The notes under the pieces are model-generated. The model was not told the origin of the DNA and made no database searches. It worked only from the letters and a program-made list of their open reading frames with translations. From positions 33,495 to 97,494 of the forward strand of contig CAYHEM010000005.1 in assembly GCA_964355765.1 (NCBI GenBank): a stretch of 64,000 nucleotides of DNA. The letters run 5' to 3'. This DNA is from an uncultured Gallionella sp. GTDB lineage: Bacteria > Pseudomonadota > Gammaproteobacteria > Burkholderiales > Gallionellaceae. Below are positions 11,347 through 38,059 of the stretch, one piece after another; the first letter of the stretch is position 1; each line of letters opens with the position of its first letter. The translations under genes and the position numbers were made by a program.

Positions 11347-13314
11347 ATGTCCGACATCCAATCCGTGTTGCATGAAACCCGAGTATTTAACCCATCCGAA
11401 GACTTTGTCAGACAGGCCAATGTCTCCGGCATGGAAAGTTATCAGGCCATGTGCAAGGCAGCGGAGCAGGACTATGCAGGTTACTGGGCCAAGCTGGCGC
11501 GCGAAACCCTGCTGTGGAAAAAACCGTTTACCAAAACACTGGACGAGAGCAATGCGCCGTTTTTCAAGTGGTTTGAGGACGGCGAGTTGAATGTTTCGCA
11601 TAACTGTCTCGACAAGCATCTTGTCAGCCAGCCGGAAAAAATCGCGATCATTTTCGAAGCCGACGACGGCACGGTGACGAAAATCAATTACCGCGATCTT
11701 CATGCACGCGTCTGCCAGTTTGCCAACGGCCTGAAATCGCGCGGCATCAAAAAAGGCGAGCGCGTCATCATCTACATGCCGATGAGCATCGAGGCGGTCG
11801 TCGCGATGCAGGCCTGCGCGCGCATCGGCGCGATCCATTCGGTGGTATTCGCCGGATTTTCCTCCAGAAGCTTGCATGAGCGCATCACCGATGCCCAGGC
11901 GTGCGCGGTGATTACCGCCGACGCGCAAATGCGCGGCGGCAAGCTGATGCCGCTGAAACCTGCAGTGGACGAAGCATTGACGCTAGGTGGCTGCGACAAA
12001 GTACACAGTGTCGTCGTGTATCGGCGCGCCGCCTGCGAAACCGCGTGGAACACAGCGCATGATGTTTGGTGGCATGATCTGGTGGCGGGACAAAGCGCCA
12101 TCTGCGAACCGGAATGGGTCAGTGCGGAACATCCGCTGTTCATACTCTATACCTCCGGTTCCACCGGCAAACCCAAGGGTGTGCAACATTCCAGCGGCGG
12201 CTATCTGCTGTTGGCGATGCTGTCGATGCAATGGGTGTTCGATTACAAACCGGCCGATATTTTCTGGTGCACCGCAGATGTGGGCTGGGTCACCGGCCAC
12301 AGCTATGTCACCTACGGCCCGCTGGCAATGGGCGCGACGCAGGTGGTATTCGAGGGTGTGCCAACCTGGCCCGATGCAGGTCGCTTCTGGAAGATGATTC
12401 AGGATCATCGGGTGACGATCTTCTATACCGCACCAACCGCGATCCGCTCCCTCATCAAGCTGGGGGGCGACTTGCCGGGAAAATACGATTTGTCCAGCCT
12501 GCGCCTGCTCGGCTCGGTCGGCGAACCGATCAACCCGGAAGCCTGGATGTGGTATTACACCGAAGTCGGCCGCTCGCGCTGCCCGATTGTGGATACCTGG
12601 TGGCAAACCGAAACCGGCGCGCACATGATTGCACCGCTGCCCGGTGCGATGCCGATCAAGCCCGGCACCTGCACGCTGCCCCTGCCCGGCATCATGGCTA
12701 CCATCGTCGATGAAACCGGGGAAGAATTGCATGGTCCGAATGGCGGTTTTCTCGTCATCAAGCGCCCGTTTCCGTCACAAATCCGCACCATCTGGGGCGA
12801 CCCGGAGCGCTATAAAAAAAGTTATTTTCCGGAAGAAATGCGCGGCTATTACCTTGCAGGTGATTCCGCGCACCGCGATGAAGACGGGTATTTCTGGATC
12901 ATGGGGCGCATCGATGATGTGCTGAATGTTTCCGGCCACCGTCTCGGGACGATGGAAATTGAATCGGCGCTGGCTGCCAATCCGCTGGTCGCCGAGGCAG
13001 CCGTGGTCGGCAAGCCGCATGACATCAAGGGGGAAGCGATCGTGGCCTTTGTCGTGTTGAAAAGCGCACGTCCGGACAATCCGGTCAAAGCCAAAGAAAT
13101 AGCCGCAAGCCTGCGCGCCTGGGTGGGAAAGGAAATCGGCTCGATTGCCAAACCCGATGAAATTCGCTTTGGCGATAATCTGCCCAAGACGCGCTCCGGC
13201 AAAATCATGCGCCGCCTGCTGCGCGCCATCGCCAGAGGAGAAGATATTACCCAAGACGTTTCGACACTGGAAAACCCAGCCATTCTCGAACAGTTGAAAA
13301 ACGCTGTGCGCTAA
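11347..13314 (+). CDS. acs: Acetyl-CoA synthetase
   Basis: 655 aa with AMP-binding signature [11 protein letters not shown]. Full-length typical Acs N- and C-termini. Confidence 0.97.
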
Positions 13315-13692
13315 TTGGCCGGGTTTGGTTACGACATAACCCGCCAACGGGTTAGTCTCCACCGCAACAAGCCTCTGCGAGGCGTGTTGTCGGCGCAGGC
13401 TAACATCGCTTGCGATGTTAAGGTGCGCAGCACCGGCCGTAGCCAAAACCCAGCCATTCTCGAACAGTTGAAAAACGCTGTGCGCTAATTGGCCGGGTTT
13501 GGTTACGACATAACCCGCCAACGGGTTAGTCTCCACCGCAACAAGCCTCTGCGAGGCGTGTTGTCGGCGCAGGCTAACATCGCTTGCGATGTTAAGGTGC
13601 GCAGCACCGGCCGTAGCCAAAACCCAGCCATTCTCGAACAGTTGAAAAACGCAGTGCGTTAATTGGCTGGGTTTGGTTACAACATAACCCGC
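13271..13692. repeat. 174-bp tandem repeat: 2 identical units plus a 74-nt diverged partial unit
   Basis: Units start at 13271, 13445 and 13619. Units 1 and 2 are identical by eye. Unit 3 has 4 mismatches over 74 nt and then runs into unique sequence. Each unit starts with the last 44 nt of acs including the stop codon. Confidence 0.95.
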
Positions 13693-14282
13693 TGCTCATT
13701 GTTCCCAGGATTTTCATCAGCCCAATTATTGAGGTATTTCTCCAGCCAGAACAGCCCGACGATGGTTTTGCTGTCGTTGATCTTGCCAGAGCGTATCCAC
13801 GCTATCGCCTCCTGCAGGGGCAATTCGAATACTTCCAGAAATTCACCATCGTCCAGATTGCGCCCTTGTCGCGTCAGGCCGCGCGCCAAGAAATATGCTA
13901 TGCGTTCGTCGGCGTAACCGATGCAAGGCCAGGCAGTGGTAAGGTGCTGCCACTCGCCTGCCGCATAACCGGTCTCTTCCAGCAACTCGCGTTGCGCGGT
14001 AAGCAGAATATCCTCTCCATGATCAATTTTTCCGGCGGGCAGTTCGATGAATTCGCGTTGCGGCGCGTAGCGAAATTGGCGCTCCAGCACCAGATTGCCG
14101 TTGTCCAGCATCGCCAGCACTGCCACCGCGCCGGGGTGGGTGATGTATTCGCGGCTGCCTGTCGCGCCATTCGGCAAAAGCACACTATCCTTGCGCACCT
14201 GCATGAAACTTCCTTCATACACCAATGCCGTATCCAGACGCTTTTCTTCCAGATCCACTATCACTCCTTGCTTCCGGGCCAA
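13677..14282 (-). CDS. Nudix hydrolase, ADP-ribose pyrophosphatase-like
   Basis: Nudix box GKIDHGEDILLTAQRELLEETG, 201 aa. The 3' end lies inside the third (partial) repeat unit. Confidence 0.8.
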   Translation of the reverse strand: MARKQGVIVDLEEKRLDTALVYEGSFMQVRKDSVLLPNGATGSREYITHPGAVAVLAMLDNGNLVLERQFRYAPQREFIELPAGKIDHGEDILLTAQRELLEETGYAAGEWQHLTTAWPCIGYADERIAYFLARGLTRQGRNLDDGEFLEVFELPLQEAIAWIRSGKINDSKTIVGLFWLEKYLNNWADENPGNNEQRVML

Positions 14283-17560: not shown

Positions 17561-17722
17561 GACTATACATAGCGGTGGAAATCGTAGCGAGCGATTTTGC
17601 AGCGGAGAGAGACCAGAAAGCGGGAACCTGAGGATTCGGGGCGGGGCACGAGTCCGCTGCGGAATCCCGCGGCGAATCTATGTCGCTATGTGCAATCGAC
17701 AACCGCGCTGCCACATTATTTT
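17561..17722. repeat. Imperfect palindromic intergenic element with CGCTATGTATA-type ends
   Basis: The left end GACTATACATAGCGG and right end GTCGCTATGTGCAATCGAC are inverted relative to each other. GATTTTGCAGCGGA and TCCGCTGCGGAATC are an inner inverted pair. The right end is similar to 53278..53325. Confidence 0.35.
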
Positions 17723-18046
17723 TCCACCTGAGACACGTCCCGCACCGCACCCTTGTCGGCCGAAGTCACCATAAGGCGTTGGCCTGCGAACGGCGGAGCA
17801 GTGGCTCCACGCAAGTGGAGATGCGACCCGGCAGCAGTGCCCGCTGCCATCATATTCCTTCAAGCTGCGACACGTCCCGCACCGCGCCCTTGTCGGCCGA
17901 AGTCACCACAAGGCGTTGGCCTGCGAACGGCGGAGCAGTGGCTCCACGCAAGTGGAGATGCGACCCGGCAGCAGTGCCCGCTGCCATCATATTCCTTCAA
18001 GCTGCGACACGTCCCGCACCGCGCCCTTGTCGGCCGAAGTCACCAT
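17709..18046. repeat. 137-bp tandem repeat: 2 near-identical units plus a diverged ~63-nt partial unit
   Basis: GACACGTCCC recurs at 17732, 17869 and 18006 (period 137). Each unit contains the last ~57 nt of ilvD (minus strand) including the stop codon. Confidence 0.9.
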
Positions 18047-23659: not shown

Positions 23660-23782
23660 ATGAGCCTCCTGGAATTAATGCAAACTGTCCCTGCTACCTT
23701 CATCGGCGCGTACCTGATCATCGGCCTGATGGTCGGCAGCTTTAGCTCCGACATAACCCGCCGGCGGGTTAGTCTTCACTGA
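23660..23782 (+). pseudogene. Displaced 5' fragment of a prepilin peptidase gene (28 codons), fused to a hairpin element
   Basis: MSLLELMQTVPATFIGAYLIIGLMVGSF aligns with the pilD N-terminus MSDLFQLLQSSPLAFTSACAVLGLMVGSF. Homology stops at 23743, where the hairpin motif begins. Confidence 0.6.
23749..23779. repeat. 31-nt hairpin motif CGACATAACCCGCCGGCGGGTTAGTCTTCAC
   Basis: Perfect 18-nt palindrome TAACCCGCCGGCGGGTTA (23755-23772). 28/31 identical to 13332-13362 and 13506-13536 in the acs tandem repeat. Confidence 0.85.
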
Positions 23783-23792
23783 AACCACCGAC

Positions 23793-33316: not shown

Positions 33317-33868
33317 TCAGGCTGATTTGGCGAGATCCAGAATCCCCGGCAAAAATACCTCTGTCACCAGTAGCGGCGCGCCCTGCAGATAAAACAGCGA
33401 GCGGCGCGCCCACAGGCGGTCTGGCGGATTACGCAACACCGTAGCCGCGCGCTGATACAGCATATGTGTGCCGCGTAATGCCTTGTAATGCAGCGGCCTG
33501 CGCTCAACCTGCGGATGCGCAAACAACAGCGCACCCAGAGGCCTATTGCCCAGATTGCGCACGGCAGACCATGCGCCATGAAGATCCTGCCGGTCGCACG
33601 CGCTGTGCGCAAACACCACCGGTCGATTATCGGCGTACAGAAACACTTCCCGCGACCAGGCCAGGCATTGCGGCGCAATGCCGAGCAGCGCCGATTCGTC
33701 GAAGGCAATGCGCGCCAGTCCGCTGCGCAGCGGGCGCACTGCGAAGCTTTCGCAACGTTGCTGGATGCGTTGCGTCAGCGAGCCGCGATCACCGAGCCAC
33801 GGCGCAATACCCGCTTCGCAGTTCACGGCTGCGCCATTCCAGTAGTAATCAGACACGCAGATAATCAT
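33317..33868 (-). CDS. ubiC: Chorismate--pyruvate lyase
   Basis: WLGDRGSLTQRI and REVFLYADNRPVVFAHS motifs. I prefer the ATG at 33868, which overlaps the recG 3' end by 20 nt. Confidence 0.75.
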   Translation of the reverse strand: MIICVSDYYWNGAAVNCEAGIAPWLGDRGSLTQRIQQRCESFAVRPLRSGLARIAFDESALLGIAPQCLAWSREVFLYADNRPVVFAHSACDRQDLHGAWSAVRNLGNRPLGALLFAHPQVERRPLHYKALRGTHMLYQRAATVLRNPPDRLWARRSLFYLQGAPLLVTEVFLPGILDLAKSA

Positions 33869-35936
33869 GTTTATTTGCCATCCATCGGTGCAGATGCACC
33901 TGCACCGTTTCAGGAAAATCGCGCAACAATTCATCGGCGCTCTGCCGCGCATCGTTCAATAAGTCTTCATCCGCGCTGATGTCGGCAAAGCGCAGCATCG
34001 CAACCCCGCTCTGGCGCGCACCGATCAACTCACCTGGCCCACGCAATTGTAAATCCTGTTGCGCGATGGCAAAGCCGTCATTGCTCTCATAGATGATCTT
34101 CAGGCGCGCACGCGCCAGCTCAGAAAGCGGCTGCTGAAACAACAACACGCAGGTACTCTCGGCCGTGCCGCGCCCCACCCGTCCGCGCAGTTGATGCAGT
34201 TGCGCCAACCCCATGCGCTCGGCATGGTCGATCACCATCAGACTGGCATTCGGTACATCGACGCCGACTTCGATGACCGTTGTGGCAACCAGCAATTGCA
34301 GTTCACCCGCCTTGAACGCCGCCATGACCCGCGCCTTTTCGGCGTTATCCAGCTTGCCGTGCGCCAGACCAACACGCAGTTCCGGAAAAGTTTGCGTGAG
34401 CAGCTGAAAGGTCTCCAGTACGGTCTGCAATTGCAGCGCCTCAGGTTGGCTGCGGCCGCTACGCTTAACGTTCGCTGCGCTCACGTTAGCCTTCGCCGAA
34501 ACTCCGTTTTCGTCGATCAGCGGGCACACCCAATAGGCCTGCTGCCCCTCCATGCACGCGGCGCGCACCCGCTCGAACACTTCGTCACGGCGCGCATCGC
34601 TGACCAGCTTGGTAGCCACTGGCGTGCGCCCCGGCGGTAATGCGTCGATCACCGACACATCGAGATCGGCGTAATAACTCATTGCCAGTGTGCGCGGGAT
34701 CGGCGTGGCACTCATCATCAGCTGATGCGGTTCGCTGCCCTTGTTGCGCAGCGCAAGGCGCTGCTGCACACCGAATTTGTGCTGTTCATCCACGATCACC
34801 AGGCCGAGCCGGTGAAAGCTGACCTGTTCCTGGAACAGCGCATGGGTGCCGATGGCCAGCAACACCTCGCCGCCAGCGATGCGTTCGGCGGCAAGCTGTT
34901 TCTCTTTCTTCTTTAAGCTACCGGATAGCCACACCGGCGTAATGCCGAGCGGCGTGAGCCAGTCGCACAGCTTGAGATAGTGCTGTTCCGCGAGGATCTC
35001 GGTGGGTGCCATGAAAGCAACCTGATAACCGTTCTCGATAACCTGCAGTGCAGCGAGCACGGCAACAATGGTCTTGCCGCTGCCGACATCGCCGAGTAAC
35101 AGGCGCTGCATTGGGTGGGATTGCGCGAGGTCGTGGCTGATTTCGGCGTACACTTTTTGCTGCGCGCCGGTCAGCGCGAACGGCAGCTTAGCGAGCAAGG
35201 CGTCGGTGAAGCGGTGAAGCGGCGCAAGCTCGGGAGCGGTGCGCTGGCTGCGCTCGCGGTGGTGCATGCGCATCGACAGTTGCTGCGCCAGCAGCTCGTC
35301 AAATTTGATGCGCCGCCACGCGGCATGGCTGCGCTGCTCCAGGCTGCTTGCGGCAATGTCAGGCGGCGGGTTGTGCAACAGCCTGAGACTGTCGGCAAAG
35401 TCTGCCAGCCGCAGTTTTTTCAGCAGCGGTTGCGGCAGCGTATCGCTCAACGGCAGGGTCTCCAGCGCGTTACCGATCAGCTTGCGCAACACGGCCTGCG
35501 ACAGCCCGGCAGTCGTCGGATACACGGGTGTGAGGCTCTGCTGCAGTGGCGTATCGTCGTCCACCACGCGGCACTTCGGGTGCACCATCTCCAACCCGTA
35601 ATAACCCATGCGTACCTCGCCGATAGCGCGAATCTGTTTGTCCACTGCGAGCTGCTTTTGCTGGCTGGGATAGAAGTTCAGGAAACGCAGATACAGCTCG
35701 CCGCCGTTGTCCTGCAGACGGCAAACCAATGTGCGGCGCGGGCGAAAAGCCACTTCGCTGTGGGTAATAACGCCCTGCACCTGCACGGTCTCACCGGGCT
35801 GGACCGTCGCGATTGGTGCCAGATGCGTCTCATCCTCATAGCGCAACGGCAGATGCAGCAGCAGATCGGCGCGGTGGTGAACACCCAGCTTGGCGAGTTT
35901 GGCCAGCGTGGCAGGTGAAATCTTGACTGGTTGCAC
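33849..35936 (-). CDS. recG: ATP-dependent DNA helicase RecG
   Basis: Wedge domain plus helicase motifs GDVGSGKT and VIVDEQHKFG, 695 aa. Confidence 0.96.
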   Translation of the reverse strand: MQPVKISPATLAKLAKLGVHHRADLLLHLPLRYEDETHLAPIATVQPGETVQVQGVITHSEVAFRPRRTLVCRLQDNGGELYLRFLNFYPSQQKQLAVDKQIRAIGEVRMGYYGLEMVHPKCRVVDDDTPLQQSLTPVYPTTAGLSQAVLRKLIGNALETLPLSDTLPQPLLKKLRLADFADSLRLLHNPPPDIAASSLEQRSHAAWRRIKFDELLAQQLSMRMHHRERSQRTAPELAPLHRFTDALLAKLPFALTGAQQKVYAEISHDLAQSHPMQRLLLGDVGSGKTIVAVLAALQVIENGYQVAFMAPTEILAEQHYLKLCDWLTPLGITPVWLSGSLKKKEKQLAAERIAGGEVLLAIGTHALFQEQVSFHRLGLVIVDEQHKFGVQQRLALRNKGSEPHQLMMSATPIPRTLAMSYYADLDVSVIDALPPGRTPVATKLVSDARRDEVFERVRAACMEGQQAYWVCPLIDENGVSAKANVSAANVKRSGRSQPEALQLQTVLETFQLLTQTFPELRVGLAHGKLDNAEKARVMAAFKAGELQLLVATTVIEVGVDVPNASLMVIDHAERMGLAQLHQLRGRVGRGTAESTCVLLFQQPLSELARARLKIIYESNDGFAIAQQDLQLRGPGELIGARQSGVAMLRFADISADEDLLNDARQSADELLRDFPETVQVHLHRWMANKHDYLRV

Positions 35937-36409: not shown

Positions 36410-38059
<1,650 letters not shown>

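Follow-up and report, generated by a model that had tools for sequence, protein, structure and literature searches.

DNA that settles at or beside the ends of bacterial genes is known in several forms. MITEs share their terminal inverted repeats with an IS and are bounded by a fixed, short target duplication of 2–9 bp. At the icd gene of E. coli, the element e14 or phage 21 brings in the working gene end; the resident end survives behind it as a pseudo-copy, with differences that are mainly synonymous. REP families are small, structured, palindromic and dispersed, lie mostly just 3' of genes and often form opposed pairs or clusters, some of them sitting within flanking palindromes that are absent where there is no REP (Di Nocera et al. 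2013, PMC3733652). Finally, insertion with long target duplication leaves direct repeats of variable length above 30 bp that are single-copy in insert-free genomes (Nobusato et al. 2000; Furuta, Abe & Kobayashi 2010, PMC2853133); these inserts bear no mobility gene, their repeats often overlap a gene 3' end or a tRNA gene, and it has been proposed that they are amplified later by way of these repeats (PMC2853133).

The locus considered here lies in a window of 64,000 nucleotides (the whole stretch of DNA analysed) from the genome of an uncultured Gallionella sp., hereafter G000. An array of 174-nt units stands between acs, encoding an acetyl-CoA synthetase of 655 aa (11347–13314, plus strand; an open reading frame with the Pfam domains ACAS_N, AMP-binding and AMP-binding_C), and a Nudix hydrolase gene (13677–14282, minus strand; recognized by Pfam NUDIX). 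This array is probably a small tandem amplification of a "gene-end cassette" and, judging from the sequence comparisons set out below, it is one case of a widespread habit of a small betaproteobacterial hairpin element, named E, at gene ends.

Tandem Repeats Finder places the array at 13271–13692, with a period of 174, 2.4 copies and 98% matches. An earlier note, made from the letters of the DNA, had described a layout A-B-A-B-A* with units starting at 13271, 13445 and 13619, and both this program and direct sequence comparison bear it out: unit 1, that is A plus B (13271–13444, plus strand), and unit 2 (13445–13618, plus strand) show no differences, and A* (13619–13692, plus strand) departs from A at 4 of its 74 positions, namely 35 (T>A), 41 (C>T), 50 (C>T) and 63 (G>A) of the unit. 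The final 14 codons and the stop of acs (13271–13314) form the working end, a-L, of unit 1, and a silent copy of them follows in unit 2 (13445–13488). The acs stop at unit positions 42–44, the 14-nt gap and the Nudix stop at 59–61 (TTA on the plus strand) are placed as that note had them, and the two mismatches within the acs frame, GCT/GCA and CGC/CGT, are indeed both synonymous. Behind the gene end comes a', an inverted copy of the opening bases AAACCCAGCC of the duplicated segment, which reads GGCCGGGTTT at 13317–13326 (plus strand) and again at 13491–13500. A* is made up of an acs end (13619–13662), its own a' (13665–13674), which reads GGCTGGGTTT and complements AAACCCAGCC perfectly, and the first 19 nt of a truncated, reversed E. 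Between genomes, a and a' covary.

B had been taken for a spacer with strong hairpins. The hairpins are real, and TAACCCG-CCAA-CGGGTTA is the inner hairpin of the reversed E copy, E(-), but the spacer is not private to this locus, being a composite of a class-wide repeat element in which two opposed E copies flank a small hairpin. E(-) is of the short type (13326–13364, minus strand, again at 13500–13538; nhmmer E = 8.6e-6 with the short-type profile, and family alignment). The small hairpin, H2, is CAACAAGCCTC-TGC-GAGGCGTGTTG, with the stem GCCTC-TGC-GAGGC (13365–13389, plus strand, again at 13539–13563), and copies of it with compensatory stem changes adjoin other E copies, at C2:54767, C12:65698 and C8:1487. 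E(+) is of the long type, CGGCGCAGGCTAAC-hp1-GTTAAG-hp2-GGCCGTAGCCA (13391–13445, plus strand, again at 13565–13619), has the conserved fold and is matched by the covariance model R1 with 57.4 bits (E = 1.5e-11) and by nhmmer with E = 9e-11; its 3' end (..GCCA) runs straight into the next copy of the acs segment. The whole 174-nt unit has a folding energy of -79.8 kcal/mol (z = -4.8 relative to shuffled sequences), with a' and the 5' arm of E(-) pairing with the 3' arm of E(+) and the next a. No intrinsic terminator is predicted within the array. Rfam gives no match over the window at gathering thresholds and only chance-level matches at E <= 10, the single one for the array being CRISPR-DR28 (19.4 bits against a threshold of 35, E = 2.1). 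A CRISPR array was rejected because the "spacers" between E copies are copies of one gene end, and attC and dif readings are ruled out by the anatomy, TAAC/GTTA lying inside the hairpin and not at its base.

An array of this kind may also arise in the computer, when strain variants of a metagenome are joined into a loop that no cell contains, the actual sequence being A-B-A* or having one A only. The source is a metagenome-assembled genome, the 174-nt unit exceeds typical short reads, and the runs were compared as k=31 unitigs. In these Logan unitigs, the one representing the unit (13275–13474) has a depth of 84.8 against 44.5 and 46.1 for the unique flanks in sample X1, 143.7 against 72.5 and 76.5 in X5, and 37 against about 14.4 in X2, and in X3 one unitig spans 13420–13566, that is, B, A and B in succession. 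The array at 13271–13692 is real, with about twofold unit depth in three independent metagenomes, and the best estimate of its size is two full units, an approximate number, as it comes from short-read unitig depth only. Sister species G018 has a three-copy array at the same junction, and there are like arrays in G114 and G055, whose near-complete assemblies consist of one to three contigs; the artefact, a danger to which the earlier note had itself pointed, is scarcely credible.

E can be written as CGGCGNAG[G/A]CTAAC-hairpin(s)-G[C/T]CGNAGCCA. It is a structured, quasi-palindromic element of about 40–65 nt, of which some 30 copies lie at gene ends in the 2.3 Mb of G000. The earlier note had set as a test a search for B and the junction motif elsewhere in the genome, and further copies of the B modules and of the motif do exist. 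E is present in 28 of the 31 genomes of the genus and in 63 of the 201 of the order. Its fold comprises an outer GGC/GCC stem, a GNA/GNA internal loop, a second GGC/GCC stem and a TAAC/GTTA stem, with variable inner hairpins that show compensatory changes; 96% of cells are paired, against 12–55% when the partners are slid. Both arms carry CGNAG, in which N is variable and is often T on the 3' arm (GTAG). E would be a conserved structured motif without an Rfam family. Cultured strains also carry it, among them Azonexus caeni KACC 11481, in which serS bears a cassette, as well as Methylophilus luteus CCUG 58412, Cupriavidus and Paraburkholderia, and for this reason its mechanism is testable at the bench.

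The resemblance of E to REP, BIME and REPIN sequences is considerable: a short palindrome in many copies, mostly extragenic and located at gene ends, with some copies in frame within genes, including repair genes such as recG. Its GNAG motif, often GTAG, may be a counterpart of the GTAG or CGTC tag that REP sequences bear at one end. In contrast to REP families, which are usually specific to a species or genus, the sequence of E is conserved class-wide; its core is branched, with two hairpins and the GNA/GNA loop; it has no RAYT association; and it stands apart from the REP sequences described in PMC3733652 in having a long target duplication joined to an inverted a', and displaced gene ends that look like alleles. 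Like Correia/NEMIS, ERIC, RUP and Nezha, E is non-coding, hairpin-forming and dispersed beside genes, and like MITEs it is co-transcribed and can give neighbouring ORFs stop codons or tails. It differs from MITEs in its duplications, which are variable and 15–110 nt long, and in that no parent IS is seen beside the E copies of G000. No description of the E sequence, or of gene-end duplication around REP-like elements, was found in the literature outside subscription journals.

The order of parts around E is recurrent: the gene runs through GA|AAA into a-L (the new end), which is followed by a', by E and then by AAA-a-L (the old end). This layout holds for about 35–37% of the E copies examined in other genomes. 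In the survey of the genus, a direct repeat begins exactly at the E 3' end in 28 of 75 E copies from 22 other genomes, against 1 of 600 random sites, and among named Betaproteobacteria this is so for 48 of 139 copies; about 60% of E copies have no flanking duplication, which tells against the cassette reading. The duplicated stretch varies from 23 to 88 nt in the genus and from 15 to 110 nt in the named Betaproteobacteria. Its start site has a clear preference (G in 23 of 28 cases, then, after the junction, A in 25, A or C in 20 and 6, A in 27 and A in 25), and the E end and the target have 1–4 nt in common (A, AAAA or ATTA). Layout sites are gene 3' ends, 5' ends on the other strand and tRNA genes, and they are seen in G000, in the genus and in the order; in the tRNA cases (L213 and L229), the duplicated stretch runs from the anticodon loop to the 3' end. 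Within G000, for instance, serS has a cassette with a 67-nt repeat at 100% identity (67/67), a gene at C2:181430 has one with a 30-nt repeat (30/30 identical), pstB has one with an inverted a' matching at 16/16 positions and with ATTA common to the E end and the target, and pilD shows the layout at its 5' end. In a smpB-like gene, 18 codons are duplicated with an identical protein and at least 12 synonymous differences. Genes with both a working and a displaced copy include acs, serS and the ..ENRLHVQKALMEYLLLGK gene.

These cassettes come close to insertion with long target duplication. The serS site is filled in G000, G011, G004 and G010 and empty in G012, G014, G008, G006, G003 and G015, acs ends are single or duplicated, and the insert, a non-coding hairpin sequence of 40–130 nt, contains no integrase or transposase. 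The known inserts of that type, in contrast, are kilobase-sized restriction-modification units, each a one-off, whereas the members of the E family have defined ends, join preferentially at GA|AAA and come with the extra a'. A serS RNA contig that skips a' and E was rejected as an "empty" or processed form, being likelier a de Bruijn path through the 71-nt repeat, with a'-E uncovered.

Plain local tandem duplication offers a simpler account, in which slippage or unequal crossing-over acts at a hairpin-rich intergenic region, E is passive and recombinogenic, and neither mobility nor import is involved. The identity of units 1 and 2 agrees with this, and the other arrays found (accB five times and recA three times in G114, each with a diverged last copy, and a fivefold array in G055) have near-identical inner units and a diverged copy at the edge, which is the outcome of concerted evolution. 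The ilvD array in the same window speaks for it too, since the spacer there is not a dispersed repeat: this array has the cassette layout, but its spacer, F, is single in G000 and at best distantly E-like. F was rejected as a member of E, having no other copy in G000 and a 3' end (..CGCAGGCCA) that resembles the E end weakly; with such a spacer, the layout may not depend on E itself. Against local duplication stands the fact that one event yields 2.0 copies and not A-B-A*. It also leaves unexplained the start of the repeat exactly at the E 3' end and at a G|AAAA site, the inverted a' always abutting the E 5' end, the single cassettes in which no further E follows the old copy (serS, pstB and the acs genes of G013 and G024), and the mainly synonymous differences of the old copies, and the filled and empty serS sites differ by exactly one block of a-L, a' and E. 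As an explanation of the whole, it is improbable. For the latest step at acs, the earlier note had played slippage down, a view that finds no support here: the simplest account of the passage from A-B-A* to A-B-A-B-A* is that the 74-nt repeats recombined unequally or slipped.

Codon comparisons of old and new copies gave 130 synonymous and 33 non-synonymous differences in a first set and 89 against 50 in a second, both by automatic framing, and about 127:19 and 88:31 once evidently mis-framed pairs were dropped; among random changes, the synonymous share is about 25%. Because these differences are mostly synonymous, the displaced ends look like displaced alleles, seemingly those of other lineages. 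The inverted a' fits the new copy better in 14 cases and the old one in 1, with 13 ties, and by this count it is the working copy with which a' pairs and is co-inherited. At acs, the ends are duplicated in 7 genomes of the genus and single in 11, and the extra ends start at ..GCC|AAAAYCC without exception (G000, G018, G010, G001, G013, G019 and G024); in the Methylophilaceae L132 and L149, the same acs site is occupied. Alignment of the syntenic acs-Nudix junction of G018 gave three acs ends of two allele types, with 10 differing codons, all synonymous, and A* has GCA and CGT as in copy 2 of that species. The proposal that A* is the resident acs end displaced by an import is therefore supported in one part, A* being best read as the older end. 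It is not supported in the other, since at this locus alone vertical divergence would account for two synonymous differences as well as import would; likewise, the 4 differences here are too few to prove import.

A new working end with the resident one left as a pseudo-copy is what e14 and phage 21 produce, and the array could accordingly be imagined as what remains after a site-specific integration like that at icd (e14) or at tRNA att sites, with A as attL, A* as attR and B as the residue of an element that integrated one or more times with a replacement acs 3' end. The direct repeats contain a gene 3' end, the outer copy is allele-like, as with e14 and phage 21 in icd, and the tRNA duplications from anticodon loop to 3' end (L213, L229) are of the kind made by many integrases. 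Those prophages, in contrast, bear an integrase and use one fixed att, whereas here a non-coding spacer of about 100 nt, with no recombinase gene nearby, is one of many at dozens of unrelated genes: the same 57-nt element stands between the repeats, and the "att" repeat itself differs from gene to gene (15–110 nt) with GA|AAA as its only common core. This reading is extremely improbable.

More weight is due to homology-facilitated illegitimate recombination during natural transformation, in which E would be not a transposon but the preferred end or junction of imported fragments: the import is anchored in the gene body, and its E-hairpin end is joined at a micro-homology (..CCA/..GA|AAA) before the resident gene end. 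The allele-like displaced copies, the a' that accompanies the incoming copy and the junction overlap of 1–4 nt (A, AAAA or ATTA) all suit it, as does the report that insertion with long target duplication comes mostly from naturally competent species (PMC2853133). The window contains the type IV pilus genes pilC and pilD, and competence is putative. Such recombination alone does not create a', the first arrival stays unexplained where donor and recipient have no E-linked copy in common, and the identical new and old copies of serS (67/67) and C2:181430 (30/30) suit de novo duplication or conversion. On the whole we consider it rather unlikely.

The reading preferred here, amplification of a gene-end cassette, can be set out as a series of steps. 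From the anatomy of the layout, and from empty versus filled sites, we infer for its first origin that E would enter an intergenic site beside a gene with a long staggered target duplication, and that a' would be made by snap-back (fold-back) copying at the palindromic E through host replication or repair enzymes. Cassettes would then move between strains and species by recombination, the incoming gene end displacing the resident one, and unequal recombination or slippage between duplicated ends would have given A-B twice at acs. A* is best read as the older acs end, now behind the working one, with the two A-B units as the current cassette, doubled later and recently by unequal recombination, and a rearrangement that truncated an E copy may have placed the Nudix gene beside the array, into which it reads. 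A simple DDE-type staggered cut was discarded as a model for entry, since it would yield a-L-E-a-L without a'. A diversity-generating retroelement was likewise set aside, the changes T>A, C>T, C>T and G>A not being adenine-specific and no reverse transcriptase adjoining.

No enzyme or autonomous partner for E was found, and no protein-coding partner is seen beside the E copies of G000. Neither reverse transcriptase nor Y1 transposase genes track E: the E-rich genomes G045, G114 and G055, all near-complete, have no RVT_1 gene, which is still compatible with past activity, and Y1_Tnp is absent from E-rich G055 and G204 and present in E-free genomes. G000 itself has only two reverse transcriptases, both of group II introns and on another contig, and three Y1_Tnp genes flanked by other repeat families. 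These observations bear on SINE-like retroposition, by which E RNA would be copied into a TTTT^C nick through target-primed reverse transcription, snap-back of the palindromic cDNA giving a'. The geometry is that of LINE and SINE insertion, with an A-rich nick site, variable duplications, occasional inverted segments and the 3' end of the element abutting the duplication; G000 has its two group II intron enzymes; and the unit is over-represented in four metatranscriptome assemblies (in X7, 45 against 7 for the Nudix gene; in X12, 14 against 4.7), contig depth being a poor measure of RNA and DNA a possible contaminant of such libraries. The likeness goes no further than geometry, as E occurs in genomes without a reverse transcriptase gene, including the three just named, has no A-tail of its own and overlaps its target by ATTA at pstB. 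Retroposition is very improbable, and E is not a member of the LINE/SINE class.

A bolder proposition, which we put forward tentatively and regard as doubtful, is that E is mobile DNA of a new class in Betaproteobacteria, defined by its structure and encoding no protein, and spread by nick- or end-primed copying with host enzymes and then by homing of cassettes. The branched hairpin of 40–65 nt would enter beside gene ends by such copying, with a long, variable target duplication from GA|AAA and a snap-back inverted a' as the result. The block of gene end, a' and E would then "home" into that gene in further strains and species, where the pair of stacked hairpins would set the E 3' end exactly before the resident gene end, and the tails and the 3' or 5' untranslated regions of acs, recA, accB, serS, pstB, smpB and tRNA genes would be swapped across lineages with the gene never broken. 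If true, a tiny non-coding element would be replacing and duplicating core-gene ends across a bacterial class, at no time inactivating the gene and with no need of a nameable enzyme. This would account for "ghost" gene ends and altered C-terminal tails, such as those of serS and of the Nudix read-through, and for short tandem arrays that pass for noise in annotation and assembly. It would also give the long-unexplained insertion with long target duplication a sequence-defined case, with GA|AAA, the inverted a' and a conserved 57-nt fold.

The Nudix gene illustrates how such a tail may be acquired. Other Gallionella Nudix genes end in ..LEKYLNNWQD and a stop; here that stop is lost, and 15 codons (ADENPGNNEQRVML, then a stop) read into the junction and the truncated element, the last of them lying antisense to the truncated E(-) in A*. 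The earlier note had seen in A the antisense of the last Nudix codons, and its positions are right, but by comparison with these relatives the "Nudix end" within A is not the native gene end. The array and its two genes have PhoH-like and FapA-like genes as neighbours. As a further point against the cassette reading, the element that adjoins a' in the array of G000 is reversed, unlike the simple cassettes of sister species.

The earlier note described a 174-nt tandem array between the convergent acs (11347..13314, + strand) and Nudix hydrolase (13677..14282, − strand) genes, with the layout A-B-A-B-A*, where A (74 nt) holds both gene ends, B is a 100-nt spacer and A* is the diverged last copy. 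Tandem Repeats Finder recovers this as one array at 13271-13692 (period 174, 2.4 copies, 98% matches), in which units 1 and 2 are identical as claimed, and A*, the partial third copy of 74 nt, departs from them at four positions; both stop codons (acs and Nudix) and the 14-nt gap are placed inside A exactly as described. The source genome is metagenome-assembled, from freshwater or groundwater samples, and the array is genuine rather than an assembly artefact, for which reads supporting only one unit would be expected. Instead, the Logan unitig (k=31) at 13275-13474, specific for A-type sequence plus B, is covered about twice as deeply as the unique flanks in three samples (84.8 versus 44.5 and 46.1; 143.7 versus 72.5 and 76.5; 37 versus about 14), the exact copy number lying beyond short-read unitigs, and in a fourth sample a single unitig spans B, A and B. 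The predicted fold of the unit is much more stable than those of shuffled sequence (-79.8 kcal/mol, z = -4.8), and no canonical terminator is predicted in the array. In four metatranscriptome assemblies (X7, X12, X14 and X15) the unit is over-represented, assembling as a 204-nt contig (window 13290-13500) at a depth well over that of neighbouring genes (45 versus 7 in X7); this may reflect either a stable structured RNA or DNA carry-over, and its compatibility with a stable structured 3' UTR proves little.

B is no spacer private to this array: BLAST and pattern searches find its modules dispersed elsewhere in the genome. B plus the final bases of A is made up of a reverse, short-type copy of a small hairpin-forming repeat element, E (13326-13364), a small hairpin, H2 (13365-13389), and a forward, long-type E (13391-13445). 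The sequence of E reads CGGCGNAG(G/A)CTAAC, a variable hairpin, GTTA(AG), an optional second variable hairpin and G(C/T)CGNAGCCA, and all copies share one fold, in which a symmetric GNA/GNA internal loop separates the outer GGC/GCC stem from a second GGC/GCC stem, followed by a TAAC/GTTA stem. Sequence varies in the inner hairpins, whose pairing is kept, and bases pair in 96% of cells across 15 aligned copies, versus 12-55% with the partners slid. About 30 copies are present in the source genome; by covariance model, E is present in 28 of the genus's 31 genomes (0-28 copies each) and, across the order, in 63 of 201 genomes (40 of 115 genera), and carriers named by an exact-pattern scan include Thiobacillus, Methylophilus, Methylotenera, Sulfuritalea, Accumulibacter, Azonexus, Cupriavidus, Paraburkholderia, Gallionella and Sideroxydans. 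No Rfam family for E was found. Some copies lie within genes: recG (695 aa, window 33849-35936, − strand) reads in frame through a long-type E at 34444-34501, encoding ..IDENG-VSAKANVSAANVKRSGRSQP-EALQ.., reminiscent of REP families, which can sit inside DNA-repair genes (PMC3733652); three tandem units lie within an RND (CzcA-like) transporter gene (L119, G175 C7:41850-42550), and a single E within a Mpl/MurC-like gene (L125, G087).

The layout at acs is the normal habit of E. The same order of gene end, inverted flank (a'), E and second gene-end copy recurs at several loci of the source genome: 67 nt are duplicated with 100% identity in serS (new tail FIRVS*, old tail MLAR*), 30 nt in a gene at C2:181430 and 25 nt in pstB, where the copies differ at two synonymous sites and the inverted flank is perfect over 16 nt, and a smpB-like gene and, on the other strand, the pilD 5' end are arranged alike. 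A survey of 75 copies of E in 22 further genomes of the genus found 28 in which a direct repeat (23-88 nt), matching a stretch upstream of E, begins exactly at the 3' end of the element, as opposed to 1 of 600 random control sites; in named Betaproteobacteria this applies to 48 of 139 copies (15-110 nt). The duplication is long and variable, and about 60% of copies have no detectable one. The junction is a preferred one, the base before the upstream repeat copy being G in 23 of 28 cases and the copy starting A-A/C-A-A, and the ends are defined, E proper terminating in ..GCCA; since ATTA and TAAT are shared at pstB, the flanking bases belong to the target and not to E. On its 5' side E is abutted by a', an inverted copy of roughly 8-16 bases from the start of the duplication, paired from base two. 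As the duplicated stretch usually runs from inside the coding region across the stop codon (the start codon on the other strand) up to the a'-E position, the gene is left intact. Empty and filled serS sites were found in sister species.

Several individual loci add detail. Upstream of pilD, a displaced 5' fragment (MSLLELMQTVPATFIGAYLIIGLMVGSF, window 23660-23792, + strand), about half identical to the working N-terminus, is separated from the gene by an E at 23741-23784 (− strand), and its homology stops at GLMVGSF (GAAAA on the element's strand). At the serS cassette (L035:1538-1694, contig C8) an X7 RNA contig joins the serS end to the downstream flank, missing the 155 nt of a'-E plus one repeat copy. 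The DNA run of the same sample has the cassette at full depth. This contig is probably a graph artefact and less likely a processed or cassette-free form. At C12:65600-65830, a tRNA-Ser(UGA) truncated at the anticodon loop to its 5' half (CTTGACAAC) comes first, then a hairpin plus E, then the intact tRNA-Ser, with similar tRNA cases in other genomes (L120, L121, L131, L213, L229 and L234). An ilvD array (window 17706-18045, − strand; period 137, 2.5 copies) has two near-identical units and a diverged third, which reads QLEGI* versus QVEK* with the remaining changes synonymous; no further copy of its hairpin spacer (77 nt) was found in the genome, and the spacer contains no recognisable E, despite the same layout. 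Finally, outside the window, at C5:19498-19680, a gene's terminator-like hairpin is followed by three short-type copies of E in tandem (period 67 nt), and the 3' arm of that hairpin is repeated ahead of each one.

The displaced copies, that is, the older gene ends behind E, resemble alleles rather than decaying junk. In pairs without indels, 130 differing codons are synonymous versus 33 non-synonymous in the genus set, and 89 versus 50 in the class-wide set; frames were assigned automatically, and leaving out the three and six evidently mis-framed pairs, respectively, gives about 127:19 and 88:31. About 25% of random substitutions are synonymous, and vertical decay of the displaced copy would predict a non-synonymous majority even if the working copy contributed only synonymous changes. 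Judging from these codons, most of the divergence accrued when each copy still served as a working gene end, in separate lineages. Moreover, a' fits the working, upstream copy better in 14 cases and the displaced copy in one, and the travelling unit is thus the duplicated gene end together with a' and E. The proposal that A* is a displaced resident acs end accordingly gains from the family as a whole, the acs of this genome alone offering a thin basis with two synonymous differences.

Arrays of this kind are common. For instance, in G114 five 144-nt units and a diverged last copy lie behind accB, and three units behind recA, the last encoding quite a different tail, while five units occur in G055. 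As in A-B-A-B-A*, near-identical inner units are followed by one deviant copy at the end, a pattern that unequal recombination or slippage between duplicated ends yields; the earlier note had favoured displacement over slippage for A*. Amplification through long target duplications has been proposed (PMC2853133).

Extra acs ends, always starting ..GCC|AAAAYCC (codons N-P-A), occur in 7 of 18 genomes of the genus, and E cassettes occupy the same site in Methylophilaceae (L132, L149). The a/a' stem covaries between genomes: AAACCCAGCC/GGCTGGGTTT in the source genome, AAATCCCGCAAT/ATTGCGGGATTT in G018 and AAATCCGGCC/GGCCGGATTT in G010. G018, the sole relative in which acs and Nudix also adjoin, carries acs ends in triplicate: copies 1 and 3 share one type, and copy 2 belongs to the source-genome type; the types differ at 10 codons, all synonymous, the encoded peptide is the same in all copies, and A* carries the state that it shares with copy 2. 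Nudix orthologues elsewhere in the genus end in ..LEKYLNNWQD* or ..KDWR*. In the source genome (..NNWADENPGNNEQRVML*) and G018 (..NNWAEAKPDGN*) this stop is lost and the frame enters the junction and repeat sequence read in antisense, producing in the former a read-through tail of 15 codons (13677-13721, − strand), partly antisense of a truncated E, and in the latter a different one at the same junction. Since Nudix lies 5-10 kb upstream of acs in most relatives, the lost stop points to a rearrangement that cut E 19 nt from its end and placed Nudix next to the array. In A, the duplicated Nudix end is present as claimed, but as a by-product of rearrangement and not as the native gene end.

Among known systems, E works like REP/BIME and has many traits in common with them, but it fails the RAYT test and is far more widely conserved. 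Y1 transposase (RAYT) genes do not track E, and those of the source genome are flanked by other repeats: a small RAYT-like gene at C17:25260-25721 has arrays of a different, classical GTAG REP (CCCCTGTAGGAGCGCAATTCATTGCGCGAT) on both sides, and two further Y1 genes (C13, C1) each have their own family. The two reverse transcriptases of the genome belong to near-identical group II introns 10 kb apart on a lower-GC contig (C4:26326-26973 and 36537-37184; RF00029, RF02012; ORF of about 556-590 aa), and RVT_1 is absent from the E-rich, near-complete genomes G045, G114 and G055. No enzyme for E was found in this analysis, nor did a literature search of incomplete coverage find a paper describing E or its layout, which amounts to insertion with long target duplication on a small scale and with defined sequences; the displaced allele is similar to that of icd/e14, here without any integrase. 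Simple staggered-cut transposition would yield no a'. Rather, a strand end at a GA|AAA site may have been extended across E, the new strand folding back, because E is a quasi-palindrome, and copying a few bases of its own flank as a', with a second break 15-110 nt off setting the duplication length. Spread could then proceed by recombination with relatives' DNA, anchored on one side within the gene body and joined on the other at the 3' end of E, ahead of the resident end; stacked hairpins of a-L-a' (a-L being the duplicated gene end) and E would place this 3' end exactly at the junction, and the predicted fold of the 174-nt unit contains the corresponding pairing. At this locus, an acs cassette of the a-L-a'-E type would have existed in the ancestor of the source genome and G018, the rearrangement that truncated E and fused Nudix would have left what is now A*, a full cassette with slightly different, synonymous acs codons would have been placed before A* by import or within-array exchange, and the doubling of A-B would be recent.
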